The translations under genes were made by a program, and so were the position numbers. The notes under the pieces were generated by a model, which saw nothing but the letters and a program-made list of their open reading frames with translations, was not told the origin of the DNA and made no database searches. This document shows, in pieces, positions 16,735 to 49,265 of a stretch of DNA of 64,000 bases. The stretch is taken from IMG/VR virus record IMGVR_UViG_3300035183_000373, positions 5,658 to 69,657 of that record; one strand, 5' to 3'. The DNA is from a virus. The number at the start of each line of letters is the position of its first letter. Position 1 is the first letter of the stretch.

Positions 16735-16737
16735 TTA

Positions 16738-17199: not shown

Positions 17200-17214
17200 G
17201 TTTTATATTCACCT

Positions 17215-20155: not shown

Positions 20156-21103
20156 TTACTGAATTATTGTACCACTATGCAATCCACGAGCAACACCATT
20201 AGCAACTAATGCAGCCATACCAATTTCTTCGTAAGCCACATAGCCGATTGATGCTTGCTTAGGATTATCGTCAGGCATTAAAATAAGTTCAGTACGAACT
20301 GGCATAACCCCAAAGAAGCGAGGTTCAGCAAGAGCATAAACAGAACCCTTCTGAACGAGACGGCTAACAATTAAGTCAATACCCCATATACTTCCATAGA
20401 GACCAGTTTCCAGAACTTCACGGAGAGACACAGGGTCTAAATCTTTATTAGACCACACACGAATATCGGCAAATGAACGGAATCGCATTAAGAATGCATA
20501 CTGCGGTAAATCAAAATCCATAATAGATGCCGATAAATCGTTCAAAAAGACCTTACTTGCACCAGCTGTTCCAGTAGTATAAGGAACATTGCTTAAATTA
20601 CCAGCAGTAGTACTGTTAAGTAACGCAAGGAACTGTAAGTCTTCCTGTTCCTGAACAGCAATCTTCAATGCTTCTTGAGTACGGTCAAGAATATTGAACC
20701 TACGCTGTTGAATTTCAGACAATCGAATATTTGCATCAGCAAATATTTCCCAAGTAGTGGGTTCAACATATTCAGCATTGATATTAACAGAATCAACACT
20801 TCCTTGCTTTGAAACAACGAAAGCATTGACCTGCTTTTTAATATCTCGGTCGTACCTAACAATCTGACCTTGAGCAAGAACGTCTATCTCAAGAAATTTT
20901 CTAGCAACTCCAACATAGTCTAACTGTTCACGAATAGGAACAGCCATTTGAGCACCTACTGCCTGACGCCCAGCTTCAGTCTGTAATGCATCAAACACCT
21001 GGTCAACGCTTATAGAATTCTGAAAGGTGTCAAATGCATCCTGAGCACCAGTTACTGTACCTGCCTGAGTAGCAAACCCAGATTGAGGTCTATTTGTATT
21101 CAT
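20156..21103 (-). CDS. major capsid protein (HK97-like fold)
   Basis: 315 aa; PIREQLDYVGVARK, YDRD, QEQED, GLYGSIWG, YEEIGM motifs; follows scaffold and decoration genes; AGGAG RBS; higher GC than flanks. Confidence 0.85.
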   Translation of the reverse strand: MNTNRPQSGFATQAGTVTGAQDAFDTFQNSISVDQVFDALQTEAGRQAVGAQMAVPIREQLDYVGVARKFLEIDVLAQGQIVRYDRDIKKQVNAFVVSKQGSVDSVNINAEYVEPTTWEIFADANIRLSEIQQRRFNILDRTQEALKIAVQEQEDLQFLALLNSTTAGNLSNVPYTTGTAGASKVFLNDLSASIMDFDLPQYAFLMRFRSFADIRVWSNKDLDPVSLREVLETGLYGSIWGIDLIVSRLVQKGSVYALAEPRFFGVMPVRTELILMPDDNPKQASIGYVAYEEIGMAALVANGVARGLHSGTIIQ

Positions 21104-21747: not shown

Positions 21748-23574
21748 TTACCGTTTTCGATAATGCGGCCTTACTTTTCTGAACGATTCCGCCTCAGGGT
21801 TCAGACCCATTTTGCGAAGTCTATTGGTATATGTATCTAAGTAATTAATAAATGATTCTTTTTGTAAAGAAGAATTAACCTGAAGCTGAGGAACAATAGA
21901 AGCAGTTCGTGCAATTTTTGCATCATCTCTAACTTCTTGAGATACACCTTCTGTAGATACATTTTGATTCTGAGGATTACGAACAGCTTCTTGAGTATTA
22001 GCTATAATTCCAGATTCAGTTTCTTCATTTTCAGGAATCCTGGCTTCTTTAAGAGCCGCTTCATTCACTATCGGCATAGACTCAATTAACTCTTTTTGTG
22101 CTTGGAACTTAGCATCATCATAAGAAACAACTTTCTGAGCGTAACTGGCTATAGCCGATTTAGTAAATGGTATTAATCCACGACTTGCTGCAAGACGAGA
22201 AAAATCAACAGCCATACGAGCTTTAGCTTTTCTAACTTCTAACGAAGCAGTAGTATCAGGACTTCCAGAACCAACCGAATTTTCATCATTACCGCCTTCA
22301 AGGCCACCTTCAACCTCATCTGCCTCTAATTCGGGTTCATAATTAACATTCATTTCATCACCACTTTTTACGCCCATTTCAGCATAATCTTCATTAATAC
22401 CAGCACCTAAATCAGACTTTTTCTTATTTGATGTAAGTTCTCGTGCAAATTCTGCATCACCAAATGCATCCTTATAATATTGACGTAACTTTTCTTTATC
22501 CTTAACGTGAGGTTCACGTTCAGACGTAGCACTTAAACCAATTACATCGACATCCGCGTTAAGGTAAGCAGCAACTGCATCTATACCATTACGTCGAACC
22601 TGATATTCAACATTTTTAGCAAAGAGAGGACTTAAAAATATTTCATAATTTTCAGCAGTTTTTTCTCCAACAACAGGAGATAATTTGTCCCATGTAACAA
22701 CTGCATATTTACCTTTACGGTCTTTATTCAATGCTCGAACAACAATTGCAGAACTAAATACATTGTTCTTTTTAACAGCTTTTGCATTAACATAAGCACT
22801 AAGCTCATGAGGATTTCCTTCATCGACTAAACGAGGTTCAGAAGCTGCATTCGGAAGTTTGTCTTCCTTTTCCTTATTCTTCTTGTACTCTTCATAGCCA
22901 GACTGGAAATGCTTTAATTCTTTTTTAGCTGAGTAATATACGTCTCCATCTATACCCTTGTCTCCAGTAAACTGTGCACCAGTAGGAGGAACTGCGGTAG
23001 AAAACACCTTACCCAGCTCTTGCCAAACAGTTTTAGCTTCCTTTACACTATTAACAACTTCCTGTAACGGAGACTTCTTTGTGGAAGAAGAAGACGATTT
23101 ACGAAGCAAGAATGACCAGTGTCGAATTGCGTTATTTGCATCGTCTATAGCAGCTATTGCTTGACGAGTTAGAATACCAATTTCATCTTGAACCTTAGAA
23201 CTTAACCTGAAGGTTTTGCTGGAAGTTTTTTCTTCCATTTCTTTGCCCTGTTCGGTAATATTATCTATACCTTCAACAACAGATTTTAAATCAGTAATAG
23301 CTTCATTCAATGTCTTTTTGGCTTCCTCTGGAGTCTTAATTTCTTGAGTTTCCTCGCCCTTCATTTCACCTGGTTTTTCATCCATTTCCGTTACACTGTC
23401 GGTCATATCAAGATTCTTAGCGTCTTCTGGAAGTTCACCCCTTCCAGCACCAACAAAAGTTTCAGGTTCTGCTGTAGACAACTTATTTAATAAATAAGTT
23501 GCATTATTACGAACAGAAGCTAATTCATTAAGCATTTCTTTTAAACTTTGATTAACTTTAGAAGTAGTAATCAT
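21748..23574 (-). CDS. prohead scaffold/core protein
   Basis: 608 aa, acidic and coiled-coil-like, upstream of decoration and MCP genes. Confidence 0.6.
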   Translation of the reverse strand: MITTSKVNQSLKEMLNELASVRNNATYLLNKLSTAEPETFVGAGRGELPEDAKNLDMTDSVTEMDEKPGEMKGEETQEIKTPEEAKKTLNEAITDLKSVVEGIDNITEQGKEMEEKTSSKTFRLSSKVQDEIGILTRQAIAAIDDANNAIRHWSFLLRKSSSSSTKKSPLQEVVNSVKEAKTVWQELGKVFSTAVPPTGAQFTGDKGIDGDVYYSAKKELKHFQSGYEEYKKNKEKEDKLPNAASEPRLVDEGNPHELSAYVNAKAVKKNNVFSSAIVVRALNKDRKGKYAVVTWDKLSPVVGEKTAENYEIFLSPLFAKNVEYQVRRNGIDAVAAYLNADVDVIGLSATSEREPHVKDKEKLRQYYKDAFGDAEFARELTSNKKKSDLGAGINEDYAEMGVKSGDEMNVNYEPELEADEVEGGLEGGNDENSVGSGSPDTTASLEVRKAKARMAVDFSRLAASRGLIPFTKSAIASYAQKVVSYDDAKFQAQKELIESMPIVNEAALKEARIPENEETESGIIANTQEAVRNPQNQNVSTEGVSQEVRDDAKIARTASIVPQLQVNSSLQKESFINYLDTYTNRLRKMGLNPEAESFRKVRPHYRKR

Positions 23575-33974: not shown

Positions 33975-34553
33975 TTATTTTTCCCATCGTTCGTAAATTT
34001 TTCTAACAACACCAAGATTTTCAAAACGTTGCATAACTTCAGCTTGGTCTCCAGAATGAAATGTCTCAGGAGACCATTCGTTAAGTATTTTTTGACATAT
34101 TGGTTTATTTATAGTCATTGCTTGACAAAAATACCAAGTTAATTCAGAACAAATAGGATGTTTTGGTGTACCAAACCAATTTTTTCTTTTACGTACATCT
34201 TTATGAAAAAATACTTCCATAAACCATCTATATACAAACCAAACTACTTGTAGAAAATCATACGTTTTTCCAGCAAAAGTAGTGTAAACATATTGTAACA
34301 CTTCTTCTATATGTTCTTGTGGAATAACCCATTCCCATACTTGATAATCGATTGTTAAATCATTTTCAAATACAGATACTGGTTGTTTATTTACTGTCAT
34401 ATCCGCCCCAAAAAATGACGGTATCCCTAATTCATCTGGAAATATAATAGCTGAATGCGTATATGGTTTTCTAGTAAAAAACCTTTGTGCTGTTGAAAAC
34501 CATCCACCTTTTTTAGAATTAAATAATATTATACTTCCTATTGGGTATTTCAT
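33975..34553 (-). CDS. permuted papain-like amidase (YiiX/YaeF-like)
   Basis: YTHSAII His before GKTYD and ICSEL Cys (permuted order), then WSP. Confidence 0.75.
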   Translation of the reverse strand: MKYPIGSIILFNSKKGGWFSTAQRFFTRKPYTHSAIIFPDELGIPSFFGADMTVNKQPVSVFENDLTIDYQVWEWVIPQEHIEEVLQYVYTTFAGKTYDFLQVVWFVYRWFMEVFFHKDVRKRKNWFGTPKHPICSELTWYFCQAMTINKPICQKILNEWSPETFHSGDQAEVMQRFENLGVVRKIYERWEK

Positions 34554-34571: not shown

Positions 34572-35153
34572 TTAGTTTATATACGGTTCCCAAAATTCTG
34601 TTGATTCTAAATTATCAATAAATCCTGATACTAATTCTTTAACTCTTATTTCTATATTTTTTAACATATCTAAAATTTCTTTTGACTTAAAACCTATTTG
34701 TATAAGAGCATTTAATTTTTCTTTAGTATATTCTTCATCATTATCGTCTTCTACTTGTACTATATCATCTAAAACATATTTTATATCTTTATCTTTAGTT
34801 ATACCGTACCATATTCTACGTTTATAAATATCATCAAATGAAAATTGTATATGTAACCATCCACCAGACCTTCCAGCTTGAAATACTGATGATATATCTT
34901 TAAATTCTGATTTTAAATAATCAATAAGATAATCTAATTCAATTGATGCATATTCCCGTATAATATTATCAATGATTTCTGGACTTAATTCTTCTTCTAC
35001 TTCTTCTGGCATATTAAATCTATATATTTTAATATTATATGCTAAATCTCCATTATGGAGATTATCATAATAATAGTTTTTTAATTCATCATACCATTTT
35101 TCATAATTAAGATATTCTAATATATTAGAAAATTTTAAATTTATAGAATTCAT
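34572..35153 (-). CDS. SNIL-module protein (GRSGGW domain)
   Basis: Starts MNSINLKFSNIL; close paralog of the C-terminal half of 36146-37066. Confidence 0.75.
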   Translation of the reverse strand: MNSINLKFSNILEYLNYEKWYDELKNYYYDNLHNGDLAYNIKIYRFNMPEEVEEELSPEIIDNIIREYASIELDYLIDYLKSEFKDISSVFQAGRSGGWLHIQFSFDDIYKRRIWYGITKDKDIKYVLDDIVQVEDDNDEEYTKEKLNALIQIGFKSKEILDMLKNIEIRVKELVSGFIDNLESTEFWEPYIN

Positions 35154-35486
35154 ATTTGACTCTTTTCTAAAATCTGATTTTACTAAATAAACTAAATTTT
35201 TACTTCTATACCAATGTTCTGGTATATAAACTCCACGAGTTTAAGAATTAAGTCTAGTATTCCTTAATACTCTTTCAGGATTTTCATACATTACATCAGA
35301 AAGCATTGCTGAATTAATAAAATATCCTTTTATTTTAGGATTTTCTCCAAGATATAAATAAGGTGATTTATATACTCGTGTATATAAATCTGTAAATTTC
35401 CATACTTGATATGGTGATACAATTTTATCAAAATTTTTTATAAAATCTTTAATATAAAACTTACCTATACTTTCAATAATATTCAT
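35154..35486 (-). pseudogene. N-terminal half of a 36146-37066 paralog interrupted by one in-frame TAA (35241-35243)
   Basis: After the TAA, 29 codons (TRGVYIPEHWYRSKNLVYLVKSDFRKESN) continue in frame into 34572-35153. Confidence 0.65.
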
Positions 35487-35500
35487 ACATTTTATATTTA

Positions 35501-36121
35501 TTATTCATTGCTATATATATCTATATACGGTTCCCAGAATTCCATTGATTCTAAATTATCATGTAAAAGATTAAATCTTTCTTTTATATATTTTTCTATT
35601 TCTTTTGACATATATAACATTTCTTTTGATTCAATCCCTAAATCCATAGGTATATTAAGTCTTTCTTTTTTTTCTTTACTTTCATTAAAAGTATAATCAT
35701 AATTATATTTATATTCTATTATTTTATCAACAATATCGTTAATATCTTCATCGTTAAAAATAGATTCCAAAATTACATCTTTATATCCATATAAGAAAAT
35801 AAATTCTATTTCTAACCAATATCCATTAATTGATATTTTATTTATATCTTTAAATTTTGATTTTAATTCGTAATTCATATTTACTACTTCTTCATAAATA
35901 TTATCGTTTATTATATCATTAATTGCATAACTATTTAATTTATTATTTACTTCTTCAGGTACATTAACATCATATAAATTTTCAATGTAAAATGCTAAAT
36001 TGTTATTATGATAATTATTTTTATTACGTATATAATGATATAATGCATAATACCATCTCTCATAATCAAGATGTTCTAATATATTAGAAAATTTTAAATT
36101 TATAGTGTTAATACTATTCAT
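35501..36121 (-). CDS. SNIL-module protein, diverged paralog
   Basis: MNSINTINLKFSNILEHLDYERW...LESMEFWEPYID. Confidence 0.75.
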   Translation of the reverse strand: MNSINTINLKFSNILEHLDYERWYYALYHYIRNKNNYHNNNLAFYIENLYDVNVPEEVNNKLNSYAINDIINDNIYEEVVNMNYELKSKFKDINKISINGYWLEIEFIFLYGYKDVILESIFNDEDINDIVDKIIEYKYNYDYTFNESKEKKERLNIPMDLGIESKEMLYMSKEIEKYIKERFNLLHDNLESMEFWEPYIDIYSNE

Positions 36122-36145
36122 ATATTTTATATTTACTATTTATTG

Positions 36146-37066
36146 TTATGTGTCTATATACTGTTGCCAGAATTCCATTGATTCTAAATCGTCAATAAAT
36201 CCTGATACTAATTCTTTAACTCTTATTTCTATATTTTTTAACATATCTAAAATTTCTTTTGACTTAAAACCTATTTGAGTAAGAACGTTTAATTTTTCTT
36301 TAACATATTCTTCATCACTATCATCATCTTCTTCTTGTATTATATTATATAAAGCATGTTCTATATCTTCATCTTCAGTTACAGCATCCCATATGTAATA
36401 TTTATAAGTATCATCAAATGAAAATTGTATATGTAACCATCCACCAGATCTTCCAGCTTGAAATACTGATGATATATCTTTAAATTCTGATTTTAAATAA
36501 TCAATAAAATCTTCTAATGCCCATCCTGCTGTACTCCATATAATATTATCAATGGCTTGTGGACTTAATTTTTCTTCTACTTCTTCTGGTATATTAAGTC
36601 TATGTATTTTAATATTATATGCTAAATCTCCATCATGAAGATTATCATAATAATAATCTTTTAATTCATTATACCATCTCTCATAATTAAGATGTTCTAA
36701 TATATTAGAAAATTTTAAATTTATAGAATTCGTATTTGATTCTTTTCTAAAATCTGATTTTACTAAATAAACTAAATTTTTACTTCTTAGCCAAGAATCT
36801 GGTATAGATACTTGAGAATTTAATTTAGTATATGTTAATACTTTTTCTGGATTTTCATTTTCTGAATTAGAAGCTATTACTGAGTTCATAAAACTATCTA
36901 CTCTTTTAGGATTTTCACCAATATAAATATATATGTAATGATTAATTCCATGCTTTTGTAACCCTGGATTTATAAATTTCCATACTTGATATGGTGATAC
37001 AATTTTATCAAAATTTTTTATAAAATCTTTTAAAGAAATCTGACCTATGAAGTTAATAATATTCAT
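36146..37066 (-). CDS. two-module protein (YQVWKF domain plus GRSGGW domain) joined at LKFSNIL
   Basis: Both halves have paralogs elsewhere in the window. Confidence 0.8.
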   Translation of the reverse strand: MNIINFIGQISLKDFIKNFDKIVSPYQVWKFINPGLQKHGINHYIYIYIGENPKRVDSFMNSVIASNSENENPEKVLTYTKLNSQVSIPDSWLRSKNLVYLVKSDFRKESNTNSINLKFSNILEHLNYERWYNELKDYYYDNLHDGDLAYNIKIHRLNIPEEVEEKLSPQAIDNIIWSTAGWALEDFIDYLKSEFKDISSVFQAGRSGGWLHIQFSFDDTYKYYIWDAVTEDEDIEHALYNIIQEEDDDSDEEYVKEKLNVLTQIGFKSKEILDMLKNIEIRVKELVSGFIDDLESMEFWQQYIDT

Positions 37067-38916
37067 AAACTTTTATATAATTGCTCAAATTTTATATTTC
37101 TCCAGTTATCTTTTCTAGGAGTACCTACAGAAATAGAATCTTCTACAACTACATCTTCAAGATTATATCCAAACACACCGTAGACAAAACCATTATATTC
37201 GTCTAATTCTGTAATTCTAACAAATCTTCTAACATCTTGACCTTGAAATTTTCCTTCTCCGTTTCTAATGTATGACCAAATTTGATTTTTTTTAGCATAT
37301 CTAAAAAATTCATCAATATCAAAATAATTATTAGATAAATTACTAAAATCAAAATCAAAACTACTAACCTTTAATTTACCTTCCCACGGTATTCTATTCA
37401 AAACTATACCTTCATACGTAGCTTCCATAGGTTCATCATCCATTTTGTAATATTTTCCATCTGAAGATTCAACATATAAAGCTGAATAAAGTTTATTATA
37501 TTCTTTATGTAATTTCATTTTATTTTCGTATGATATTCCTGTATTAAAAGGAGACCTTTCGTATCTACGATACCTATGTATAACTTTTAATGGAATTCCA
37601 GCAAAATTTAAAAATCTATTCATCATTTCTTTAGTATACTTTGTATACCAACCACCAGTATTAAGTTCTAATTTATTAGGATAAAATTTAATTATAGGAG
37701 TTTCATGATATATTATATTTATAGAATTTAATATTGGGTCAAATTTTATTTTTATACCAGTTACTCCAGCATTTATTTTTTGTCTAATCTTGTATTTAGA
37801 TGGTTCATTAGGTAAATCTCCTAATGGTTCATAAGAAAAGAAACTATTAAATATTTGTGAATATGTAATATGACTATTATTTAATATACTATCTAATTTA
37901 AAAAGTTCTAATATATTAGAAAATTTAAGTAATTGTAAATCATATGTATTATAATTTTGTTTTCTAAAATTAGGATAATCTAATTGTTCTCTTATAGGTT
38001 GTGCAACTGGAGAAATATAACCAACATCATATGAATCTACTTTTATTAAATCTTTTATTTCATCAAATGATAATCTTAATTCCATTAATTGATTTTTATG
38101 TATTGGATTATACACACCAAAAATAAGAATACTATTTCTACGGTCTATACTATTTAAGAATAAATAACAATTTAATAAGTAATTATCTAAATTATTATAT
38201 TTATATATAATATATTGTTTAGTATCTGGTAATAAATGTGAATCAATAAATTCAAGCATCTTATTATATAATTTAGAATCTGGTACTATTACGAAGCTAT
38301 CGCCAATTGTAATTATAGATGATTCTTGAACTCCATTGCTAATAATAGTTTTTGATTTATTGCCACGCATTACTTCAGATGGTTGTTCCAATTGCCCGTA
38401 TATTTTATTTTTCATAAAACAAAACTCGTTTATATTAGATAATTTATTCATATATAATAAATCATCTTTTGCTTTATTTCTCAATTCTGATTCATTAAAA
38501 GAATATAACTTATTACAATTAGCAAGTTCTTCTGAATAACTAATAGATAAAGATACTCTAGCACCTATCTCATAATCAAGTGATGTTTTAAGTTTAACAC
38601 TAGCTAGTCCAGCTGCTTCTACAGCATATGAAACTGCTTCAGCAGGGTTATTAATTTCCATTAAATCAGAATCTGCTAATCTACGTATTAGAGTTGCAGT
38701 ATTCATAAGTTGTCCATATTTTACAGATTCTGGATTTTTAAGCCATCGTTTAACTAAATTAATAGCCGACCGTAGTGATTTATCATTCGGTCTTTCCTTT
38801 TCATATGCAGGAATTATTTTTTCAGCACAATAAATTGCTGTTAATATATCTACCAATATATCACTTGGTACTTCTTTAGGTATTACGTTTAATATATTTG
38901 AAAAACTTAAATTCAT
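37063..38916 (-). CDS. multi-module protein (Imm5-like, MCP-motif module, TGGW domain)
   Basis: FSNIL twice; CAEKIIPAYEKERPNDKSLRSAI (Imm5-like); PIREQLDY; YHETPII...LNTGGWYTKYTKEMMN. Confidence 0.75.
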   Translation of the reverse strand: MNLSFSNILNVIPKEVPSDILVDILTAIYCAEKIIPAYEKERPNDKSLRSAINLVKRWLKNPESVKYGQLMNTATLIRRLADSDLMEINNPAEAVSYAVEAAGLASVKLKTSLDYEIGARVSLSISYSEELANCNKLYSFNESELRNKAKDDLLYMNKLSNINEFCFMKNKIYGQLEQPSEVMRGNKSKTIISNGVQESSIITIGDSFVIVPDSKLYNKMLEFIDSHLLPDTKQYIIYKYNNLDNYLLNCYLFLNSIDRRNSILIFGVYNPIHKNQLMELRLSFDEIKDLIKVDSYDVGYISPVAQPIREQLDYPNFRKQNYNTYDLQLLKFSNILELFKLDSILNNSHITYSQIFNSFFSYEPLGDLPNEPSKYKIRQKINAGVTGIKIKFDPILNSINIIYHETPIIKFYPNKLELNTGGWYTKYTKEMMNRFLNFAGIPLKVIHRYRRYERSPFNTGISYENKMKLHKEYNKLYSALYVESSDGKYYKMDDEPMEATYEGIVLNRIPWEGKLKVSSFDFDFSNLSNNYFDIDEFFRYAKKNQIWSYIRNGEGKFQGQDVRRFVRITELDEYNGFVYGVFGYNLEDVVVEDSISVGTPRKDNWRNIKFEQLYKSL

Positions 38917-41900
38917 TTTTTTAATTGATTATTTAATATATACCATGCGTCTGATTCTGCTTTTAATTTTAATGACTCTACATCAATGGATATGTTGAAT
39001 TGTTGCCTAAGAAAATTTATAGAAGTAAGTGCATCAATTTTATCTTCATAATCACCATTTATTATATATAAAATACTATTTGATATTGCATGAATACAAT
39101 ATTTAAGCATATCATACTTTCCACCAAAATGTAACGCATCAGAATTTACACGATTTTTTAAAATTATTAAATCATTATATGTGTTTTTTAATAATTCTAA
39201 ATTTGAACTTGTTCTTTCAAATATATATTTTTTTGCAATTTTTAATACTTTTCTAATATTAAAATCTTTTTTAACAAAAGATTTATTTTCACAAATAGGT
39301 ATTAATTCTTCTAAACAATATAATAACCAAAGAGAATCTACAATTATCTCTGTAGGAACTTCTGACGGAAATACGTTTAATATATTAGCAAATTTTCCAA
39401 TGTCATTATATATTTTTAATAATTTTGGTGTTAAATATTGAAATGCATTACGTTTAGCTTTTAATTTTAATCCATCGTAATCTAAGTTCTCATTAGCTAT
39501 CAATGCATATTTACGAGATTGGTCTACACGAGCCGTATCTCCATAATTTGAAACTGAAATACCTAAATATCCTGCTGCGTTTGCTATAGCATAACATGTA
39601 TTAGAATTACGTATTTTATGCGACCTATCTAATGCTAATTCACCCTGTAATATAGCATCATTATAATTATCTGTTGTAGGATTATTTAACCACTTATATA
39701 CACTTCTAATTACATTTTTTACTGTTTCATCATTAGGAAATACACTTTCGTACAAAGGTAATAATGATTCTACACAATATAATGCATGTAATAAATTAAC
39801 TAAAGGTTCAGGTAAAAGTTTAGGTAATGAATTAAGTATATTAGAAAATTTAATTGAAGAAACACTATTTAATTTGTTTATTAATTGTTTATTCGATGAA
39901 AATACTAATAAATCTTCATTAATATTTAATAATTTATCAATGTTAGATTTCCCTTTTAGTGGTAAAAATGCTGGTTGAATTTGGTCTATTGAAAATGGTA
40001 TATATGTCCAATCTATTTTTCCTCTAGTACCACGTTCATATTTATTTTTATATGCTATTCCATCATAACCAAATCTTTTAAGTAATAGTTTTAATTCCCT
40101 ATTATTCTTTGGATAAGGAACAATATTTCCATATCTATCAACATATTTACTATTAATTTCATATCCATATTCATCTTCCTCTCCTGGTATATATTTTAAT
40201 ATTTTACGTTTTACTAATGCATCCATAATTTCTTGAATTTCCCAAGTACCTACATCTGGAAGATATAATGGATTTTTAATATTTAAAAATACTGGATGAA
40301 TATTAGGTGCATATTTAATTTCTTTATTATAATTATCATTATAATAAACAGGAACATTTTCTATAAATTTGATAGCTTTTGGTCTATCTGACCATTGTTC
40401 TCTCTTCTTTAATATTATATTTGATTGTTCTACAGGACCAAAATGAAATCCTATTTCTTTGGTTTTCCTTGGATTAAATTCTTCAAAAATAAACGGAGTA
40501 CCATGAAATACTGGTTTTAAACTACCATCTTCATATCGAACTACACTATCTTTAAATGCTTCTTCTACAGAAGGATGTGGTTTTATATCTCTAACATCTG
40601 AAAATTTAGGTGAAGACACTTTTGTTATATTTGTAAATAATAGTCTTGACTCTTTTTTTCTAGGTAGTTCTTTAATCAATTCATTTGCTTCATCGATATA
40701 GTTAGTAGGTACAGTAATATAACCGCCAGTATCATCAACTGGAATACCATGTTCTTTCAAATATTTCACTACAAATTTTATATCATAATCTTCATCCAAA
40801 TCAACAGCTTCTTCAATACCTGACCAATCTATTTTATTTTTCTCAGGATTAAACATTAAACGGCTTCTTTCTCTTGCTATAGCATATCCTTCAGGCGAAA
40901 TTACCTCAGTAAAAACACTGTAATTACCAATACCAAATTTACCATTTAAATAAGAAATAAGAGCTTCTTGCATAAATTTACCAAGACCTTGGTTACGATA
41001 CGCAGCTTTAACAGTTGTCTCAAGTATATAAACTTTATTCCTAATTATTTCAAAATAAAGACTACCTATTACTTTCCCATCGTATATTGCTTCTATATGA
41101 TTTAAAACATGGTTCGTTTTGAAAATAAGTCGTAACTTCGACCAATCAATAATTTTCTTTCTTACTGAGGTTTTTAGAGATGCATCAATTTCCATATCCG
41201 AATCAAACACTCTAATAATATTCGAGAATTTTAATGATGTTATTACTTTATTAAGGTCTTCCTCTTTATCCATAACATGATGCTCTAATGCTATCTCTGG
41301 GTCAATTCCTGGTTCATCGACAATTAATTTCTCTGGGTCAAACATCAAAGACCTACGATAATCAAGCATTTTCTGTCCTTTTGGAGTTAAAGCTCCACTT
41401 ACAATATAGTAATTGTCTACGCCAAATAATCCATTTAGATAACTAATAAATGCTTCTTGTAATTTTTTTCCTATTCCTTTATTTGCATATCTAGGATTAA
41501 CTAATACAACAGTATGACCTATAACTGGTAAACCTTTATATTTTACATCAAGAATCTGAAATCCCATTACACCAATAATTTTTTCTTTATATTTCGCTAC
41601 AATACCTTCTGTATCTGAAGGATAGTCTAAATGTATATTTGAACGATTTACCCATGGTAAATTCGATAATTCATTAAATTCACTTGCTGGAACTACTTCA
41701 TAACGAATTTCATTTATAATATTTGAAAATTTAAGTGAAGAAAAAATTGTATTTCTATAGTCTTCAATAATATTTTTTATAATTAACAATTTATTTAATA
41801 CTTTATTAGAAGATATATTAATAATATTCCAAACATTTATTTGTTTATCTTCTTTTTCTTTTTTAAAGTCTTGTTCTATAACATGATATAAATGACCAAT

Positions 41901-42542
41901 ATCCCATCCAGAATATGCACAGTTCCATGTTATGTTTTGAAATAAATCAGAAAATTTTGGTTCTATTATTAAGTAATCATTACCTCTTACATAATCATCA
42001 CTCCAATTTATATTAATTTTATCATTTGGTAATGCTTCATTAACTTTATTTCTTATATTATTTATGAAATTTTTTTTATCTTCTTCGTTTGTAAAATCAA
42101 TTTTAAATGAATACTTTCCTTTATAAATAGAATGTAAATCTAAAAAGTTGATTAATTTTTCATATTCTTTATTTGCTAACCATTCATAATTAACATCAAT
42201 TGTATTCAATACATTCGATATGTTTTTTAAATAAGAGTGGCTTTTTATTCTTAATTTAAGATTGGGAGGTAAATATCTATTAAAAAAAGAAACATAATAT
42301 GGTATATTTTGAAGTATACCAGATACATATTCTTCTATTACATATCCTTGTAATAAATAAAGGTCATCTCCTGTATGTCTGTATTTGGACATATTTTGTT
42401 CAATAAAATCTTTAGTAGATTTATTAAAATACGGTAACCGTTCTCTTCCAATGTAAGAAACAAATTCTTGCATAAGAGGAACTGGCATAGCTACTTTTTG
42501 TAAATCATTATATTTAGTAATATTTTTAAATGTTAAAAACAT
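38913..42542 (-). CDS. polyvalent multi-domain protein (2 GNAT, ADP-ribosyltransferase-like, 2 Imm5-like)
   Basis: VNPRYANKGIGKKL and VKAAYRNQGLGKFM GNAT motif A; SVVRYEDGSLKPVFHGT...GFHFG...VFLNIKNPL...GYDGI; modules start at KFSNII/KFSNIL/KFANIL/LFTNIT. Confidence 0.8.
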   Translation of the reverse strand: MFLTFKNITKYNDLQKVAMPVPLMQEFVSYIGRERLPYFNKSTKDFIEQNMSKYRHTGDDLYLLQGYVIEEYVSGILQNIPYYVSFFNRYLPPNLKLRIKSHSYLKNISNVLNTIDVNYEWLANKEYEKLINFLDLHSIYKGKYSFKIDFTNEEDKKNFINNIRNKVNEALPNDKININWSDDYVRGNDYLIIEPKFSDLFQNITWNCAYSGWDIGHLYHVIEQDFKKEKEDKQINVWNIINISSNKVLNKLLIIKNIIEDYRNTIFSSLKFSNIINEIRYEVVPASEFNELSNLPWVNRSNIHLDYPSDTEGIVAKYKEKIIGVMGFQILDVKYKGLPVIGHTVVLVNPRYANKGIGKKLQEAFISYLNGLFGVDNYYIVSGALTPKGQKMLDYRRSLMFDPEKLIVDEPGIDPEIALEHHVMDKEEDLNKVITSLKFSNIIRVFDSDMEIDASLKTSVRKKIIDWSKLRLIFKTNHVLNHIEAIYDGKVIGSLYFEIIRNKVYILETTVKAAYRNQGLGKFMQEALISYLNGKFGIGNYSVFTEVISPEGYAIARERSRLMFNPEKNKIDWSGIEEAVDLDEDYDIKFVVKYLKEHGIPVDDTGGYITVPTNYIDEANELIKELPRKKESRLLFTNITKVSSPKFSDVRDIKPHPSVEEAFKDSVVRYEDGSLKPVFHGTPFIFEEFNPRKTKEIGFHFGPVEQSNIILKKREQWSDRPKAIKFIENVPVYYNDNYNKEIKYAPNIHPVFLNIKNPLYLPDVGTWEIQEIMDALVKRKILKYIPGEEDEYGYEINSKYVDRYGNIVPYPKNNRELKLLLKRFGYDGIAYKNKYERGTRGKIDWTYIPFSIDQIQPAFLPLKGKSNIDKLLNINEDLLVFSSNKQLINKLNSVSSIKFSNILNSLPKLLPEPLVNLLHALYCVESLLPLYESVFPNDETVKNVIRSVYKWLNNPTTDNYNDAILQGELALDRSHKIRNSNTCYAIANAAGYLGISVSNYGDTARVDQSRKYALIANENLDYDGLKLKAKRNAFQYLTPKLLKIYNDIGKFANILNVFPSEVPTEIIVDSLWLLYCLEELIPICENKSFVKKDFNIRKVLKIAKKYIFERTSSNLELLKNTYNDLIILKNRVNSDALHFGGKYDMLKYCIHAISNSILYIINGDYEDKIDALTSINFLRQQFNISIDVESLKLKAESDAWYILNNQLKK

Positions 42543-42549
42543 AAACTTA

Positions 42550-45500
42550 TTAATAGTAAATATTTAAGTAATCTAATACTTTTCTAGGATTAGAAAATGT
42601 CCTATATTCACCATCAATGTCTAAAGAAACAATTTTATTAGATGATAAAAGTGATAAATAATATATTAATGCATCTTTAGCTTTAGTATAATTTACAACT
42701 TCAATAGTAGAACCAACAACTCTAATCCAACCTAATCTCAGTAACAATTTTAAAGATTCACTATCATATTCATCAACATTTTCAGTTTTTGATAAAAATT
42801 GTTTTAAACGAGGATTATTTAATACTATTTTATTTGCCAATTGAATATGAGTTTCATTATCTCCAACTTGATATAATTCACCACTTGGACTTATCAAACC
42901 ATAAAAATTTTCTACATAAGATAATCTTACATTTTCTATATATTCTAATGCTTCATTTGGAGATTTAAATAATAAAGGTTTATTTTCTATATCAATAAAG
43001 ACACTTTTATTTGGTGGCAATAAAGATAAATATTCAATTAGTGAATCTTTAGCTTTTTTATAATTACCAATTTCTATATTTTCTCCATCTATTCTTAGCC
43101 AACCCATATTTAAAAGAATATAATTCGCTTTATATAGTTCAGATATTTTTTCTTTATATTTTAATTTATTTTTTAATATATCTACAGCAAGTTGGGCATG
43201 TGTCATTAAAATATCATTGATAGCATAATATTCACCTTCTGGACTCATCCATCCATAAAATGAAGAAAAAGTTTTAATACTACTATTTACTATTTTATTA
43301 TTTTTACTATTTTCTAAAAAGTAATCTATGTTAGTATAATAATAATCAAGTGATGCTTTTTGTTTTTTAAAATTGTATTTACAAAATAAAACTATATAAT
43401 CATCATTAGTAATAAGTCTATCTCCAATAAATTTATATTTAGAATTCAATGCATATTTTTTAACAGCTTGTTTATATGGAAGTGCATTTATTATGTGTAC
43501 ATAAATATAATCTCCTATATCTTTAAAATAAAAAAACCATCTATCGGAATTTTTAATCAATGTTTTATTAAATAAATCTATAATGTTACTACCATTTTTA
43601 GTAAATGGTTTAAAAAGATGATTCAAGAAATAGTCTAATGAAGACCAAGAGTAATATCTATCATCGCATATATAATAAATTACAATATATTCATTATTTT
43701 TTCTTATGGAATTAAATTTTTCTTTTTTATCAAATTCATCACAATGTAAATTTAATATATCTAAATTATAATTTTTATTCTTTGCATCTTGATATTTCAT
43801 AATATCATCTATAGTAACATCTACATTAAAACTGCCATGTTTTGTATCAAAACGTAAATACCAATATTTTGTATTGATAAGTAAATCTTTATTAAAATAA
43901 TCTACTATACTAGATTGTTTATTAAATCTTTTATCAACCACAGCATGCTGTAAAAAATAATCTAATGATGTCCAAGAAAGTAAAGAACCTAAATAAAGAA
44001 TTACTACATTCTTATCTTTTTCTTGAATATCTTTTATTATTTCATCTATATTGTTATAGGTAGTAATAAAATTTGTTTTGTTTAATTTATATATTTTTAT
44101 AGCTTTTGAATATGGAAGTACATTTAAACCACGAAATTCAAGTTCAACGTTTTTATCAGTAAACGGTAATACTAATTTCCAAAATTCATTTTGTAAAAAA
44201 TGTTCTTTAGTAAAATGATTTAATATATTAGAATACTTTTTTTTATTATAAATAAATTCATTCTCTGGATATAACCATGAAATATGTTGTTGTTGTGCTG
44301 CACTTATCTTTTGAACATGAATCTTAATATATCTTGGATATTGTTCATATGTCCCATAAACAATTGGAGGATAATGTTCTCCCTCCAATTCTGAATTAAA
44401 TTGATTAGCAGTTATATCAACAATATTACCATCAACTTCCACCCAGTAATGCAGTGGGGTATACATTTCGGACTCCATTTCCTCATCCGAATTAAAATCC
44501 TCACTATTCCAAGTTTCATATTTAGAATAATCGGGTTTATCAATAATAAATTTACCAATTACAAGATATACATTCTTATAACCTTCTTGTTTAAGTGCCA
44601 ACGCTAATTTTCTAGAACATTCAAGACACATTGCAGTGAAATCAGCATAGTAATCATTAGCACGGATAATATCATTTTGTACTTCCTCTGCTATTTCTTC
44701 TACTGATTTACGAATATTTGAAGTCTTTGATGTATGTTTTGTGAACTTATTATAATTATCAAAATTTTCTATAAATTTATCTAATGCTATTATCATATAA
44801 TTAAGTTTTTTATTTCTTCTATATCTTCCAAATACAACTATTGCTTCTTCATCTTCAAATAAATATTTTTTAGAAAAATCAATATATAATAATGTATTAT
44901 TTTTATTAACATAATAAATACCATCAGAAATATAATAATTGTGTATTTCATCATTAATAATATTTTTTAAACTACTTACTTTTATTACTTCAAAATCAGA
45001 ATTTCTACCCAATAATTTTTTAAATTCAGGTGTTTTAGGTACATAAATATTGTTAAATTGCTCTAAAATATTTGATTCTTTGATTGAAGAATAAGTACGA
45101 AAATCATCTATGTGTTCTATAGCTTCATTAGCATCTATAAATGCTCTAGCATCACCAGAAACTTCCATATATATTGATACATTTTTTGGTAAAAACGAAA
45201 GATACATAATAAGAGAATCTTTAGCTTTTCTCAAATTATGAATTTCTATATTTATCATCTGATAATTTAATTTAGCTACACGTATCCATCCAATTTTTAG
45301 TAAAAATGAAACTGGGTCTATTCTATGATAATACTTTTCTAAGTATTCTTGTAACGCTTTATTATTTTTTATTATCTCTTGCGCAGTTATAAAATGAGAT
45401 TGTGTAACTGAATAAGCATCCCCATTTGGAGAAATCCACAAATCTCCTGTAGGATAAGAACTTTGTTTTTCTTGTTTTTTTAAAGGAATAAAATTTTTAT

Positions 45501-48500
45501 AAAAATCATTTAATGATAACATTAAGTAATATTGTATAGTAGGTTTAATTCCATAAAGTCCAATAACAAATATTTCATTATCTGGAAAACAATTTTTAAT
45601 ATCGGAAATACGATATAAATTAAATGTATTACCACCTTCATAATAATACACAGTCATTGATTGTGGATTAGTTTTTAATAATTCATCTATTATATTATCC
45701 TTTTTTCCAACACTAACTGTAACAAAGGTTAATTGTTTATTTGTTTTTATGAACTTTTTAAATACATTATATTTAGGCACAAATTCAGAATAATTAAAAT
45801 CTAAATAATTAACAATACTTGAACTTTTTTTATTTACAACAGGAACAAAATATTTTTTAAATTCATCAATAGGAATTACTATATATTTTTGTCTATAAAA
45901 TATTAACGCTAATTTTTCATTGTCATCTATTGACAAATCTTTAATGTAATCAACAACTAGTATACCAGATAATAAATTATCAAAAACATGTACATATAAA
46001 TCTGGAAATGCAGATTCAAGATATTTTTTTGTTCCTATATCAAGTAAATCTACTATAGTATTATCTTGTATAAAGAATAATTGTATTGCTCCTTTTTTAG
46101 GTCCTATATATTTAAAAGTGCTAGGTATATGGTCTAATATATTACTGTAATTACTTACAGAAGAATTTTTATAAGATTTTTTTATTTTCACTGGAACGAA
46201 ATATTTATTAAATTCATCTAAAGTAGCTACAATAAAAAAATAACGCTTAAATATTAATAAAACAATTTTTTCATTTTCGTTAAAAGGTAATAAATCAATA
46301 TTATGATATGCTTGTAATTTATTATTTTCTATAATATCTTTTAAATAATAAACTGGAAACCATGTAGGTAATATAAATTTAAGGTCTTTTTTACTATTAA
46401 TAAAATTGTGTAATATTATTTTTGTACGATTATTTAAATAATCTGTTTTAGGTCCTACATATTTATAGTATTTAGTTAATAAATAATTTAATATATTTGA
46501 ATATCTATAAGATTTTCTTCTTTTTACTGGAACGAAATATTTGTTAAATTCATCGATAGAAAGTACTACAGATTTTTGTCGATAAAATATTAATACCAAA
46601 TTTTCATTATCATCTATTGGTAAATCTTTAATATAATTAAGAGAGAATTTATTAGATAATAAATCATCAAAAAAATATACATATAAATTTGGAAATTTTG
46701 ATTCAAGATATTTTTTTGTTCCTATATCTTCTATATTAGAAAAGTATATTATAATATTCTTTTGATTAAAGAAGAATTGTATTATTCCTTTTTTAGGTCC
46801 TATATATTTAAAAGAATTAGGTATATTGTCTAGTATATTACTGTGGTGGGAGATGTCTTGTTCTATTTCTATATTTGATTTTTTAATATCTACATTACTT
46901 ACAGAAGAATTTTTATAATATTTTCTTCTTTTCACTGGAACAAAATATTTATTAAAATCATTTAAAGTAGCTACAATAAAAAAATAATGCTTAAAATGAT
47001 GTTTAAATATTACTAATTTTTCATTATTATCTATTGGTAAGTCTTTAATATAATTAAAATACATTTCACCAGATGACCAATCATCAAGAATACTTATATA
47101 TAAATTTGGAAATTTTGATTCAAGATATTTTTTTGTTCCTATATCAAGTAAATCTACTATAGTATTATCTTCTTTAAACAATAATTGCATTGCTCCATTT
47201 TTAGGTCCTATATATTTAAAAGAATTAGGTATATAGTCTAATATGTTACTATGATGGGATATATTTTGTGATACATTACTTACAGAAGATTGGGACGTAT
47301 TATTATTAATTATATAATTATTAAATTCTTCTTCAGTAGCAATTAAATAATGACTAAAAGTGCCTTCAATTTGTCTATATATTAATAATAATATTAATTG
47401 TTGTTCTTCATCTGGATATGGAGCATATTCTATTTCATGTAATAATTGAGTATCTTTTAATATATAACTTATTGGTAATACTTTAATACCATGATGTCTT
47501 TCAGATAATTCTCTTTTAGTACCTTTATCAATTACTTTACAGTATTCAAATTTATATATTGTATTATCAAAAATTTTATTAGTTAATTGAATAGTATCTG
47601 CAATAGTAAAATATCTATAAAAATCTTCCACACTAGCGATAATATGAAAATCTCTATTTCTACAAGACAAAACAACTATGACATCAGTATCATCATATTT
47701 ATTTAAATTTAATAGTACATTTCCACTATAATCAATTAAATTGTGTATATCTATAAATTTTAATAAGTTCAATCGGTGAATTATATTATTTATTGAATTT
47801 TTGTTTCCTATAAACTGTATATAAAAATGTTGCTTCGCTGGTATTGAAAAGCGTATTAAAGTATTCTTAAAATGCGTAATATATTCAGACTTTATTTGAT
47901 ATTTATTAGTTTCTAATCCTAATTGATGTTCTAATATATTTGAATATTTATAAGATTTTTTTATTTTTACTGGAACGAAATATTTATTAAATTCATTAAT
48001 AGGAATTACTATGTATCTTTGTCGAAGTATTAACGCTAATTTTTCATTGTCATCTATTGACAAATCTTTAATGTAATCAATAGAGAATATACCAGATAAT
48101 AAATCATCAAAAACACTTACATATAAATTTGGAAATGCAGATTCAAGATATTTTTTTGTTCCTATATCAATTAAGTCTACTATAGTATTCTTTTGATTAA
48201 AGAAGAATTGTATGAATTCTTTTTTAGGTCCTATATATTTAAAAGTGTTAGGTATATAGTCTAATATGTTACTATGATGAGATATGTTTTGTGATACATT
48301 ACTTACAGAAGAATTTTTATAAGATTTTTTTATTTTCACTGGAACGAAATATTTATTAAATTCATCTAAAGTAGCTACAACATAAAAATGACGTTTAAAT
48401 ATTACTAATTTTTCATTATCATCTACTGGTAAATCTTTAATATAACTAAGATACATTTCATTAGATGGCCAACTATCAAAAACCTCTACATATAAATTTG

Positions 48501-48735
48501 GAAATTTTGATTCAAGATATTTCTTTGTTCCTATATCAATTAAATCTACTATTAAATCTAATTTTGTAAACAATACTTGCAATATTCCCTTTCTAGGTCC
48601 TATATATTTAAAAGTGCTAGGTATATGGTCTAATATATTACTGTAATGGTGTACATTTCGTACTATTTCTAAATCAATAGTATCATTATCTACTTTTGTA
48701 GAATGTGAATATGGATTATCCTTTAGGTCTTGCAT
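42550..48735 (-). CDS. 2061-aa modular polyprotein-like protein
   Basis: 10 SNI[LI] motifs; about 6 copies of an FKYIGP...FVPVK domain; 3 copies of a (W/L)[IM]SPxG...H...GW[IL]R domain; a Cys...HYWVEVDGNIVDIT transglutaminase-like domain. Confidence 0.8.
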   Translation of the reverse strand: MQDLKDNPYSHSTKVDNDTIDLEIVRNVHHYSNILDHIPSTFKYIGPRKGILQVLFTKLDLIVDLIDIGTKKYLESKFPNLYVEVFDSWPSNEMYLSYIKDLPVDDNEKLVIFKRHFYVVATLDEFNKYFVPVKIKKSYKNSSVSNVSQNISHHSNILDYIPNTFKYIGPKKEFIQFFFNQKNTIVDLIDIGTKKYLESAFPNLYVSVFDDLLSGIFSIDYIKDLSIDDNEKLALILRQRYIVIPINEFNKYFVPVKIKKSYKYSNILEHQLGLETNKYQIKSEYITHFKNTLIRFSIPAKQHFYIQFIGNKNSINNIIHRLNLLKFIDIHNLIDYSGNVLLNLNKYDDTDVIVVLSCRNRDFHIIASVEDFYRYFTIADTIQLTNKIFDNTIYKFEYCKVIDKGTKRELSERHHGIKVLPISYILKDTQLLHEIEYAPYPDEEQQLILLLIYRQIEGTFSHYLIATEEEFNNYIINNNTSQSSVSNVSQNISHHSNILDYIPNSFKYIGPKNGAMQLLFKEDNTIVDLLDIGTKKYLESKFPNLYISILDDWSSGEMYFNYIKDLPIDNNEKLVIFKHHFKHYFFIVATLNDFNKYFVPVKRRKYYKNSSVSNVDIKKSNIEIEQDISHHSNILDNIPNSFKYIGPKKGIIQFFFNQKNIIIYFSNIEDIGTKKYLESKFPNLYVYFFDDLLSNKFSLNYIKDLPIDDNENLVLIFYRQKSVVLSIDEFNKYFVPVKRRKSYRYSNILNYLLTKYYKYVGPKTDYLNNRTKIILHNFINSKKDLKFILPTWFPVYYLKDIIENNKLQAYHNIDLLPFNENEKIVLLIFKRYFFIVATLDEFNKYFVPVKIKKSYKNSSVSNYSNILDHIPSTFKYIGPKKGAIQLFFIQDNTIVDLLDIGTKKYLESAFPDLYVHVFDNLLSGILVVDYIKDLSIDDNEKLALIFYRQKYIVIPIDEFKKYFVPVVNKKSSSIVNYLDFNYSEFVPKYNVFKKFIKTNKQLTFVTVSVGKKDNIIDELLKTNPQSMTVYYYEGGNTFNLYRISDIKNCFPDNEIFVIGLYGIKPTIQYYLMLSLNDFYKNFIPLKKQEKQSSYPTGDLWISPNGDAYSVTQSHFITAQEIIKNNKALQEYLEKYYHRIDPVSFLLKIGWIRVAKLNYQMINIEIHNLRKAKDSLIMYLSFLPKNVSIYMEVSGDARAFIDANEAIEHIDDFRTYSSIKESNILEQFNNIYVPKTPEFKKLLGRNSDFEVIKVSSLKNIINDEIHNYYISDGIYYVNKNNTLLYIDFSKKYLFEDEEAIVVFGRYRRNKKLNYMIIALDKFIENFDNYNKFTKHTSKTSNIRKSVEEIAEEVQNDIIRANDYYADFTAMCLECSRKLALALKQEGYKNVYLVIGKFIIDKPDYSKYETWNSEDFNSDEEMESEMYTPLHYWVEVDGNIVDITANQFNSELEGEHYPPIVYGTYEQYPRYIKIHVQKISAAQQQHISWLYPENEFIYNKKKYSNILNHFTKEHFLQNEFWKLVLPFTDKNVELEFRGLNVLPYSKAIKIYKLNKTNFITTYNNIDEIIKDIQEKDKNVVILYLGSLLSWTSLDYFLQHAVVDKRFNKQSSIVDYFNKDLLINTKYWYLRFDTKHGSFNVDVTIDDIMKYQDAKNKNYNLDILNLHCDEFDKKEKFNSIRKNNEYIVIYYICDDRYYSWSSLDYFLNHLFKPFTKNGSNIIDLFNKTLIKNSDRWFFYFKDIGDYIYVHIINALPYKQAVKKYALNSKYKFIGDRLITNDDYIVLFCKYNFKKQKASLDYYYTNIDYFLENSKNNKIVNSSIKTFSSFYGWMSPEGEYYAINDILMTHAQLAVDILKNKLKYKEKISELYKANYILLNMGWLRIDGENIEIGNYKKAKDSLIEYLSLLPPNKSVFIDIENKPLLFKSPNEALEYIENVRLSYVENFYGLISPSGELYQVGDNETHIQLANKIVLNNPRLKQFLSKTENVDEYDSESLKLLLRLGWIRVVGSTIEVVNYTKAKDALIYYLSLLSSNKIVSLDIDGEYRTFSNPRKVLDYLNIYY

Positions 48736-48968
48736 ATTAATTATTTTTATTTAATATATGAAAATTCCTCCTATACACAATAAATATAGAGGTTAATAAT
48801 TAAAATTTTTCCACTTAAAAGAAAAAATTTAGGAGAAAAAAGGGGTGAAAATTATAGGTAAGAAAAAATTAAACTATATTGTCAGTATGTTTTGTTGGGA
48901 TAGATTATACATTTATAACCTTTAAATATCAAAAAAAAATACATCGTTTATTATTACATTATTTATAA

Positions 48969-49241: not shown

Positions 49242-49265
49242 AATTTATTATATAATAATTCACTG

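Follow-up and report, generated by a model that had tools for sequence, protein, structure and literature searches.

A conserved junction peptide at the module boundaries of polyvalent proteins in an uncultured relative of Bacillus phage G

The DNA analysed here is a window of 64,000 nucleotides, bases 5658-69657 of a 69.7-kb IMG/VR virus contig (IMGVR_UViG_3300035183_000373, here G000) that is estimated to be 41% complete, and our subject is a locus within it, at 34572-48735, where seven minus-strand open reading frames (ORFs) encode the proteins p193, p81, p206, p306, p617, p1209 and p2061. These are polyvalent (multi-effector) proteins as defined by Iyer et al. 2017, unrelated modules being connected in them by flexible S/N/K-rich linkers, and the modules are set off from one another by a short peptide with the core S-N-I-[LI]. 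The source is an uncultured myophage of ~170 kb whose capsid protein is of the Bacillus phage G / mycobacteriophage cluster-C lineage. Two related contigs, G001 and G002, and homologous proteins from other sources (P0001 and so on) are used for comparison.

Genes, modules and the junction peptide

The modules of the locus include two GNATs, an ART-PolyVal-like domain, Imm5-like modules, a predicted Cys-His-Asp module resembling papain and transglutaminases (the K module) and many domains of unknown function; positions and gene compositions are collected in Table 1. The two GNATs of p1209 each score above the Pfam cut-off (PF00583, 50 bits; PF13508, 36 bits), and the ART-PolyVal match (PF18760; E 1.7e-5, 26.1 bits) is under its cut-off of 31.2 bits, with the same family precomputed on the p1209 homologues P0001 and P0002. 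The longest chain, p2061, is made up of seven A-type repeats, D/G-type modules and the K module. A fold search with the predicted structure of p617 gave no match at E <= 0.001, its C-terminal module leading to SH3/Tudor-like barrels only. An initial annotation, made from the DNA letters and their translations, had proposed that the same modules occur both fused and free-standing. This is so for module B, which stands alone in p206 and forms the C-terminus of p306, but p81 and p193 are the halves of one stop-interrupted gene of the p306 type: a TAA is found where p306 has Gln, the linker between the halves still reads in frame, and the start of p193 lies six residues ahead of its KFSNIL.

Table 1. 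Positions in the window of the locus genes, selected modules and junctions, the capsid N-arm copy and structural genes.
Feature	Position	Strand	Remarks
p2061, 2061-aa polyprotein	42550..48735	-	10 S-N-I-[LI] junctions; variants SSIV (2), SNIR
K module (p2061 residues 1337-1499)	44239..44727	-	invariant Cys34, His93, Asp99/104
p1209	38913..42542	-	N-terminal domain I, GNAT, GNAT, ART-PolyVal-like, two Imm5-like modules
GNAT (residues 271-437), GNAT (438-634), ART-PolyVal-like (645-897) of p1209	39852..41732	-	
Tandem junction L-F-T-N-I-T-K-V-S-S-P-K-F-S-D-V, p1209 residues 635-650	40593..40640	-	no module between copies
p617	37063..38916	-	Imm5-like module, module M, module H, SH3-like C-terminal module
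N-arm copy A-Q-P-I-R-E-Q-L-D-Y-P-N-F, p617 residues 305-317	37966..38004	-	13 residues before next junction
Example junction K-F-S-N-I-L, p617 residues 331-336	37909..37926	-	N-terminal edge of confidently folded module H
p306	36146..37066	-	module E joined to module B via KFSNIL
p206	35501..36121	-	stand-alone module B after 9-residue leader and KFSNIL
p81 and p193	34572..35486	-	p306-type E-B gene split by single in-frame stop
608-aa charged, conserved head-module protein	21748..23574	-	upstream of decoration and capsid genes; without junction motif
Original A-V-P-I-R-E-Q-L-D-Y, major capsid protein (MCP) residues 54-63	20915..20944	-	conserved in G001, G002, phage G gp27
Major capsid protein	20156-21103		phrog_2522
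Sheath	13110-14642		PHROG/Pfam scans
Baseplate wedge	106-1509		PHROG/Pfam scans

The central claim of the initial annotation, that polyprotein-like genes are punctuated here by S-N-I-[LI], is borne out. The motif occurs 19 times in the 4,673 residues of the locus where 0.63 copies are expected from composition (in 2,000 shuffles the mean was 0.63 and the highest count 5), and elsewhere in the window there are two copies in 14,250 residues of minus-strand ORFs and none in 4,332 residues of plus-strand ORFs. The count of 18 given originally is one short, because p1209 has four copies and not three; the numbers for the other genes agree (10 in p2061, two in p617 and one each in p306, p206 and p193). 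All five of the variants listed at that time (KFANIL, LFTNIT, KQSSIV, KSSSIV and KTSNIR) are present, to which can be added F-S-D-V at p1209 residue 647 and D-F-S-N-L-S near p617 residue 517, and the junctions of p1209 read KFSNII (twice), LFTNIT and KFSDV in tandem, KFSNIL and KFANIL. With the looser pattern [FYH][ST][ND][IV][LIVT] there are 17 matches in the locus and two outside it. The motifs of p2061 are spaced 106-249 residues apart, and repeats contribute part of the enrichment (seven A-type and three B-type copies).

Alignment of 25 instances in the window, variants included, shows that the full peptide extends over about 10 residues, [S/N]-[L/S]-K-[F/Y/H]-S-N-I-[L/I]-[E/D/N]-x-hydrophobic-(P). 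The core is S in 22, N in 22, I in 24 and L/I/V in 23 of the 25; upstream of it are S/N at -4, L/S at -3, K at -2 (14/25) and F/Y/H at -1 (18/25), and downstream N/D/E at +4 (20/25, consisting of six E, seven D and seven N), Y/H at +5, I/F/L at +6 (21/25) and P/N at +7, where Pro is the commonest residue (8/25). The motif Ser is encoded by TCN in 16 cases and by AGY in six, indicating that what is conserved and selected is the peptide and not a DNA word. The leaders ahead of the first motif are 3-29 residues long, and both p81 and p306 begin with M-N-I-I-E, a form of the motif in which the start codon takes the place of the Ser; P0011 has K-Y-T-D-I-L in the same place. The tandem junction of p1209 is present likewise in P0001 and P0002, and the occurrence of two copies with nothing between them shows that the peptide is an autonomous element.

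Module boundaries and folds

Cutting the proteins at the motifs yields 28 segments that fall into 13 clusters unrelated by blastp, and the motif opens nine of these (the A repeats, B, Imm5-like, D, GNAT, G, H, ART and K). The variant D-F-S-N-L-S stands ahead of a tenth module, the C-terminal one of p617, and in its homologues the same module is preceded by K-T-A-D-W. All but one of the 19 S-N-I-[LI] copies lie at module starts or N-termini. Relative to the Pfam matches (in p1209, GNAT at 314-367 and 475-540, ART at 671-856 and Imm5 at 919-995; in p617, Imm5_like at 27-83) the motif is located 17-45 residues upstream, and no match contains it other than the ART-PolyVal match, which encloses the remaining copy, EQSNII at p1209 residue 707. 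Since two homologues read ANV/ANI at this position, EQSNII is probably a chance copy.

The predicted structures place the motif similarly. In an AlphaFold model of p617 (32-row alignment, mean pLDDT 60.5) the confident cores are at approximately 20-80, 341-500 and 531-617 with the motifs at their edges, pLDDT being 50-64 at residues 4-9, 61 on average in the 331-340 block and 48-50 at 511-530; values of 83-87 are reached at residues 341-360, and 341-360 and 531-617 together span 83-97. In a model of the K module (pLDDT 76.5) the first helix begins three residues past the motif. Of 26 free-standing distant homologues inspected, taken from other sources and related to the Imm5-like, H-like, C-terminal-like and K-like modules, 24 lack the motif at the N-terminus, so that the peptide has been added to these domains and is not part of their folds; the two exceptions, P0062 and P0063, are homologues of the K module with motif-like N-termini. 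The earlier placement of the motif at domain boundaries thus finds agreement among Pfam matches, clustering, models and free-standing homologues, and the circumstance named as damaging to it, motifs within folded cores, does not occur save for the copy at residue 707.

These models also raise the question as to whether the peptide is a generic helix-capping or linker element that helps each module to fold independently and has no specific reader. In the p617 model the motif is predicted to form part of a helix running into the next module (H5-11 and H317-347), and the short distance to the first helix of the K module would be consistent with such a role. The confidence of these helices is low, however (pLDDT 36-64), Pro is not only the commonest residue at +7 but is often found within a few residues after the motif in relatives, and homologous domains elsewhere fold without the peptide. 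We therefore consider this explanation improbable, and the more so because each genome uses a uniform dialect of the peptide that differs from those of other genomes, as described below, pointing to a common reader.

Related phages, the capsid N-arm copy and the gene neighbourhood

P0001, which is 87% identical to p1209, differs from it by two indels, each abutting a motif, and one of these is a 42-residue mini-module between K-F-S-N-I-I and K-F-S-D-Y. In P0002 (54% identity across 36% of p1209) the GNAT and ART modules are reordered and mixed with new modules, and the junctions read K-F-S-D-I, T-F-S-D-I, K-F-S-D-V and L-F-T-D-I. An exhaustive HMMER search with p617 recovered 40 proteins, 15 of them at least 600 aa long, and nine of these 15 carry at least two generalised motifs (2.04 per 1,000 residues versus 0.20 after shuffling), examples being S-L-K-F-S-D-I-L in P0012, K-T-S-S-I-L in P0014 and S-L-K-F-A-D-I-I in P0008. 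A search for related loci with p193 and P0012 as queries found nothing.

G001 is a complete contig of 171.8 kb with terminal repeats and a GC content of 0.38, syntenic with the window and encoding structural proteins that are 44-93% identical to those of the window (93% for the MCP). The same place, upstream of the genes for the ribonucleotide reductase (RNR) and ThyX, is occupied in G001 by four giant genes that together contain 22 junctions of the form K-T-A-D-I-[IL] / L-K-F-[ASG]-D-I-[IL] and S/G/N/Q at +4; one further match is in the neighbouring 1,643-aa gene and five are scattered over the remaining genome. G002, a complete contig of 194 kb with a GC content of 0.55 and an MCP 83% identical, uses S-L-F-T-F-[AS]-E-G-L and K-T-A-E-G-L. 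The polyvalent genes of these relatives share just 23-44% identity over short stretches, and only B, H and the C-terminal module are present in all three loci. The dialects appear to track base composition, with S/A, then N/D/E and then I/G as the successive positions. We note separately that a capsid protein 83-93% identical across contigs with GC contents of ~0.27, 0.38 and 0.55 represents an unusually wide compositional spread.

Both of the P0001 indels and all of the P0002 reshuffling break at the motif, as would be expected if the peptide and its coding DNA persist as crossover points for the swapping of modules, the peptide itself being a neutral linker. Short demarcation motifs precede the variable toxin domains of CdiA/Rhs-type polymorphic toxins, which offer an analogue; four copies at the locus share an identical 21-nt sequence, AAA TTT TCT AAT ATA TTA GAA, and G001 encodes a UvsX-like recombinase. 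Most copies nonetheless differ in their DNA (Ser TCA/TCT/TCG/AGT; Ile ATA/ATT; Leu TTA/CTT/CTA), imperfect homology over some 18 nt is little for recombination to work with, and the peptide is kept across genomes with GC contents of 0.27-0.55, where the DNA cannot be. The flanks, moreover, are conserved at the protein level (-3 L/S, -2 K, +6 hydrophobic, +7 P), and breakpoints at junctions are expected anyway if only in-frame swaps that respect module boundaries survive. Persistence of the peptide as an exchange site is thus an unlikely explanation for its conservation.

The dialects bear equally on whether the junctions could cleave themselves without a protease, by an N-to-O acyl shift at the Ser or by cyclisation of the Asn. 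The dipeptides F-S and S-N resemble some autoproteolytic sites, and such a mechanism would fit with the failure of the Pfam S77/S78 searches and head-module profile comparisons to find a protease. The chemistry needs an invariant Ser/Thr/Cys or Asn, however, and S/A/G and N/D/E interchange across the dialects; nor is there a conserved surrounding fold able to catalyse the reaction. We regard self-cleavage as extremely improbable.

A second feature of the locus is a copy of a capsid peptide at the end of module M of p617. The segment A-x-P-I-R-E-Q-L-D-Y is the sole 10-mer with at least 8/10 identities between the locus and the 74 other minus-strand ORFs (13,988 aa); in five shuffled controls the numbers of such windows were 1, 0, 0, 0 and 0. 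In the MCP family the segment is conserved out to phage G (M-A-N-P-I-R-V-S-L-D-Y), and by alignment to the HK97 pattern we read it as lying in the N-arm. The coding DNA of the p617 copy and of the MCP is identical at only 24 of 39 positions, with different synonymous codons, showing that the copy is not recent. The pattern [AP]-x-P-[IV]-R-x-x-L-D-Y-P-x-F ends the homologous module in P0012, P0014, P0002 and P0021 (a G001 protein), and in these homologues the peptide is either at the C-terminus or 10-20 residues ahead of a junction. On the strength of this sequence match, which is a new finding, the N-arm copy links the locus to the capsid.

How such a link might operate is suggested by phage 80alpha, where the C-terminal helix-and-hook of the scaffold is reported to bind mainly the capsid N-arm (PMC5644958). 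Because the N-arm is the scaffold contact in that phage, a cargo chain imitating it could be captured by the scaffold, and the 608-aa head-module protein is a possible candidate for the scaffold and the proposed partner of the N-arm copy; a co-fold of this protein with p617 residues 185-345, run without controls, scored 0.02 against a mark of 0.32, which lends no support to the pairing and does not count against it. SaPI1 likewise exploits the contact between scaffold and capsid N-arm by sequence mimicry, its CpmB protein mimicking the 80alpha scaffold C-terminus (PMC5644958). According to that account SaPI1 copies the scaffold end and thereby binds capsid, whereas here it is the capsid N-arm itself that is copied onto cargo, with binding as our proposal.

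The capsid genes and their surroundings show several other features. The nearest cultured relatives of the MCP are gp27 of Bacillus phage G (38.7% identity) and the cluster-C-type mycobacteriophages (~25%), and a 151-aa gene before it occupies the position that the decoration gene gp26 has in phage G, immediately ahead of the capsid gene, although no sequence similarity to gp26 was detected. In G001 (108184-110152) the capsid gene is split just before Q-M-A-V-P-I-R-E-Q-L-D-Y by an insert with a 276-aa LAGLIDADG-like ORF, which from its sequence has the look of a homing-endonuclease intron placed where the gene is most conserved. Nearly all of the window genes are on the minus strand and GC content varies from 0.21 to 0.37 per 2 kb (~0.27 for the contig overall); in addition to the structural genes of Table 1 the PHROG/Pfam scans identify a tape measure, holin, DNA methylase, DUF932, AAA ATPase, ThyX and an intein-containing class II ribonucleotide reductase. 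The intein that interrupts the latter gene (30134-33325, minus strand) carries a LAGLIDADG homing endonuclease (matches to Pfam Intein_splicing, LAGLIDADG_3 and Hom_end), and the G001 homologue is 671 aa and thus intein-free. Just upstream of the locus, at 48969-49586 (minus strand), are two small ORFs of 90 and 106 aa rich in G-N-G-Y-G-N-G repeats, and Gly/Asn repeats of a similar kind can be read upstream of the AAA gene at 28574. No promoter motif common to the upstream regions of the locus genes and the structural genes is apparent.

Cleavage, docking and delivery

The polyvalent-protein concept, together with delivery alongside the DNA and a proposed proteolytic release of domains, was put forward by Iyer et al. 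2017 (PMC5512222). The locus conforms to it in being a set of phage-encoded chains of many unrelated conflict-type domains, GNATs among them, that shuffle rapidly between relatives, and its candidate PolyVal-type ART scores below the Pfam cut-off; polyvalent proteins have two to 15 unrelated domains per polypeptide, and here the 13 clusters are distributed over seven genes whose phage context is given by sheath, capsid and baseplate. In the parts of that work considered here, processing is ascribed mainly to built-in zincin-like metallopeptidases or C-terminal assemblin-like peptidases (PMC5512222). No locus protein or module has a Pfam match to either type, the only candidate for a built-in peptidase being the Cys-His-Asp module with its weak fold matches. 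The features that set this locus apart from the published concept are the conserved junction peptide and the capsid N-arm copy; in the text searched, Iyer et al. do not describe a conserved junction peptide (the word 'linker' has 0 occurrences; PMC5512222), and a full-text literature search found no other paper on junction-coded polyvalent proteins. What is added here is the S-N-I-L dialect of the junction code, in a contig with a GC content of ~0.27, its G002 dialect, the codon evidence, the boundary tests and the N-arm copy. Polyvalent proteins are thought to be cut into effectors, and we know of no general rule for where the cuts are made.

As the likeliest of the readings considered, we propose that the junction peptide is a code by which a protease recognises where to part the modules, the N-arm copy assisting delivery in the virion; we hold this reading tentatively and would assign to it a probability somewhat below one half (about 0.45). 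A sequence-specific endopeptidase would recognise the peptide and cut the chains into single modules, the cut falling at or beside the small residue, either between F/T and S/A or between S/A and N/D, and the leaders before the first motif would be removed in the manner of propeptides. Because each of the related phages uses one uniform dialect, the reader of the code would probably be phage-encoded and co-evolve with it. Virion delivery is plausible, since p617 with its N-arm copy could ride into the procapsid. In a more far-reaching version the clade would process its anti-host arsenal like a eukaryotic-virus polyprotein, with S-N-I-L, A-D-I-I and A-E-G-L as dialects, a phage protease outside the recognised families and an N-arm mimic that captures the scaffold; this fuller scheme seems to us doubtful.

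The initial annotation had likewise envisaged effectors that are strung together and released by cleavage, on the model of the T4 and phiKZ head proteases. Effector-like modules are indeed strung together, and the mark at their junctions is conserved in related phages, but the protease analogy misfits in detail. The T4 cargo includes Alt, an ADP-ribosyltransferase, and the T4 protease gp21 has the site consensus L/I-x-E. The locus resembles T4 IPI-III and Alt in its diverse anti-defence cargo with one short common peptide and in its short N-terminal leaders; the T4 proteins, however, are described as separate and small, with one N-terminal tag each that is removed by gp21 (PMC3012670), whereas here the cargo forms chains, and the Glu that would be P1 is found at +4 in only six of the 25 sites. 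Many internal head proteins of phiKZ and SPN3US are reported to be processed at a short motif, with propeptides cut at several sites, and the 14 SPN3US sites listed in nine substrates have Glu at P1 and serve mostly for the removal of N-terminal propeptides (PMC10052503). The cuts described there do not separate unrelated enzyme modules, in contrast to the chains of unrelated modules at this locus, which have no invariant Glu to match a small-x-E site and belong to a phage of a different capsid lineage (phage G / cluster-C mycobacteriophages). Neither is there a likeness to the substrates of HK97-type S78 proteases, there being no S78 match and no motif in the head proteins.

T4 also provides a precedent for a different explanation, in which the peptide is not cut and is instead a docking tag through which each module binds a common partner (the scaffold or core, the portal, the ejection channel or a chaperone such as a phage GroEL), so that intact chains are loaded, unfolded or ejected one module at a time. 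The T4 internal proteins' capsid targeting sequence is described as a short conserved tag on diverse cargo (PMC3012670), recruitment of chaperonins by T4 propeptides has been reported (PMC10052503), and a GroEL is encoded by G001. At the locus itself, short leaders precede the first motif in many chains, p81 and p306 keep N-I-I-E as their very N-terminus, and the free-standing p206 keeps its N-terminal motif. One tag per chain would suffice for docking, however, and a tag at every joint, together with the empty tandems, is easier to understand as a set of cut sites, so that docking alone strikes us as possible but on balance doubtful.

Several observations weigh against cleavage and virion delivery, and those from the search for the protease may be taken first. 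S78 (PF04586) has no match in G000 or the complete G001, with controls matching in four genomes, and S77 (PF03420) has none in either, the control genomes being equally silent. Scans of 30 G001 proteins against PHROG, and then of five from G001 and five from G002, found no protease in G001, the matches including terminase, GroEL, polymerase, helicases and a UvsX-like recombinase. Phage G gp19 is annotated as a head-maturation protease in the account of that phage (bioRxiv 10.1101/2024.12.16.628780), and a homologue is found only in G002, not in G000 or G001; profile comparison of the 608-aa and 302-aa head-module proteins with the gp19-like protease was negative (probability 0.1), the 302-aa protein returned nothing in a PDB sequence search, and the ESM Atlas yielded nothing usable for the 608-aa protein or p193. 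The K module is a candidate peptidase on the basis of its model, the fold matches being dominated by papain/transglutaminase-like enzymes (SseI, vasohibin, LapG, NTAQ1, NlpC/P60 and CPR-C4), but all of these are weak (E >= 0.064) and G001 lacks the catalytic half at the corresponding position.

Further points on the same side come from the locus and its relatives. The junction motif is absent from the capsid, decoration and 608-aa head proteins, and the locus adjoins nucleotide-metabolism genes, outside the head module. The D-type repeats at the C-terminus of p2061 have module boundaries without a motif, and p206 retains the motif with a leader of only nine residues to remove, as would be expected of a tag no less than of a cleavage site. 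No N-arm copy was found in the G002 locus, and tblastn with p2061, P0012 and P0021 gave 0 matches in 50,697 cultured phage records. The ATG codons of the polyvalent genes are without a Shine-Dalgarno-like stretch in the regions inspected (48736-48968, 36122-36145 and 35154-35240 of the window), and the capsid, decoration, 608-aa, p148 and p192 genes are preceded by AAGGAG/AGAGG-type sites.

Certain candidates can be set aside. The absence of the catalytic half at the equivalent place in G001 leads us to reject the K module as a universal processing peptidase, and its BAF match in Pfam (26.4 bits) is probably spurious. A cleavage-site mimic of the Prp/L27 type was discarded for want of agreement between the positions. 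At 33975-34553 (minus strand), immediately downstream of the locus, lies a gene for a 192-aa protein whose His...Cys pattern is reminiscent, on visual inspection, of permuted papain/NlpC-type peptidases; it matches PHROG 1128 only (E 1.6e-12, labelled enoyl-CoA hydratase-like) and nothing in Pfam, and the presence of a homologue in G002 but not in G001 counts against it as the cutting enzyme.

Two other observations concern the head genes of the relatives. The polyvalent super-locus of G002 includes, at 709-5305, a second portal-like gene (phrog_16240, E 5e-50), an exonuclease and the gp19-like protease (phrog_18299, E 3e-8); G002 also has the terminase-linked 617-aa putative portal of the clade, and this second portal set is without a G001 counterpart. 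The 302-aa protein of G001 (16619-17527, after the putative portal) contains F-K-T-A-D-G, which resembles the G001 dialect, and has F-S-T-A-D-G in G002.

The N-arm copy on a cargo chain suggests a simple route for loading, for which we found no description in literature searches and which could be reused for putting foreign proteins into capsids. For the polyvalent proteins, a junction code would turn an old proposal into exact, testable cut sites with precise predictions for N-terminomics and mutagenesis, and co-variation of dialects and core genes across the clade would offer a handle on the reader. If the code is real, it gives exact and predictable cut sites for dozens of unknown effectors, and if it delimits modules, giant phage ORFs of unknown function would parse into discrete domains, of which there are here about 25, most of them without a family.

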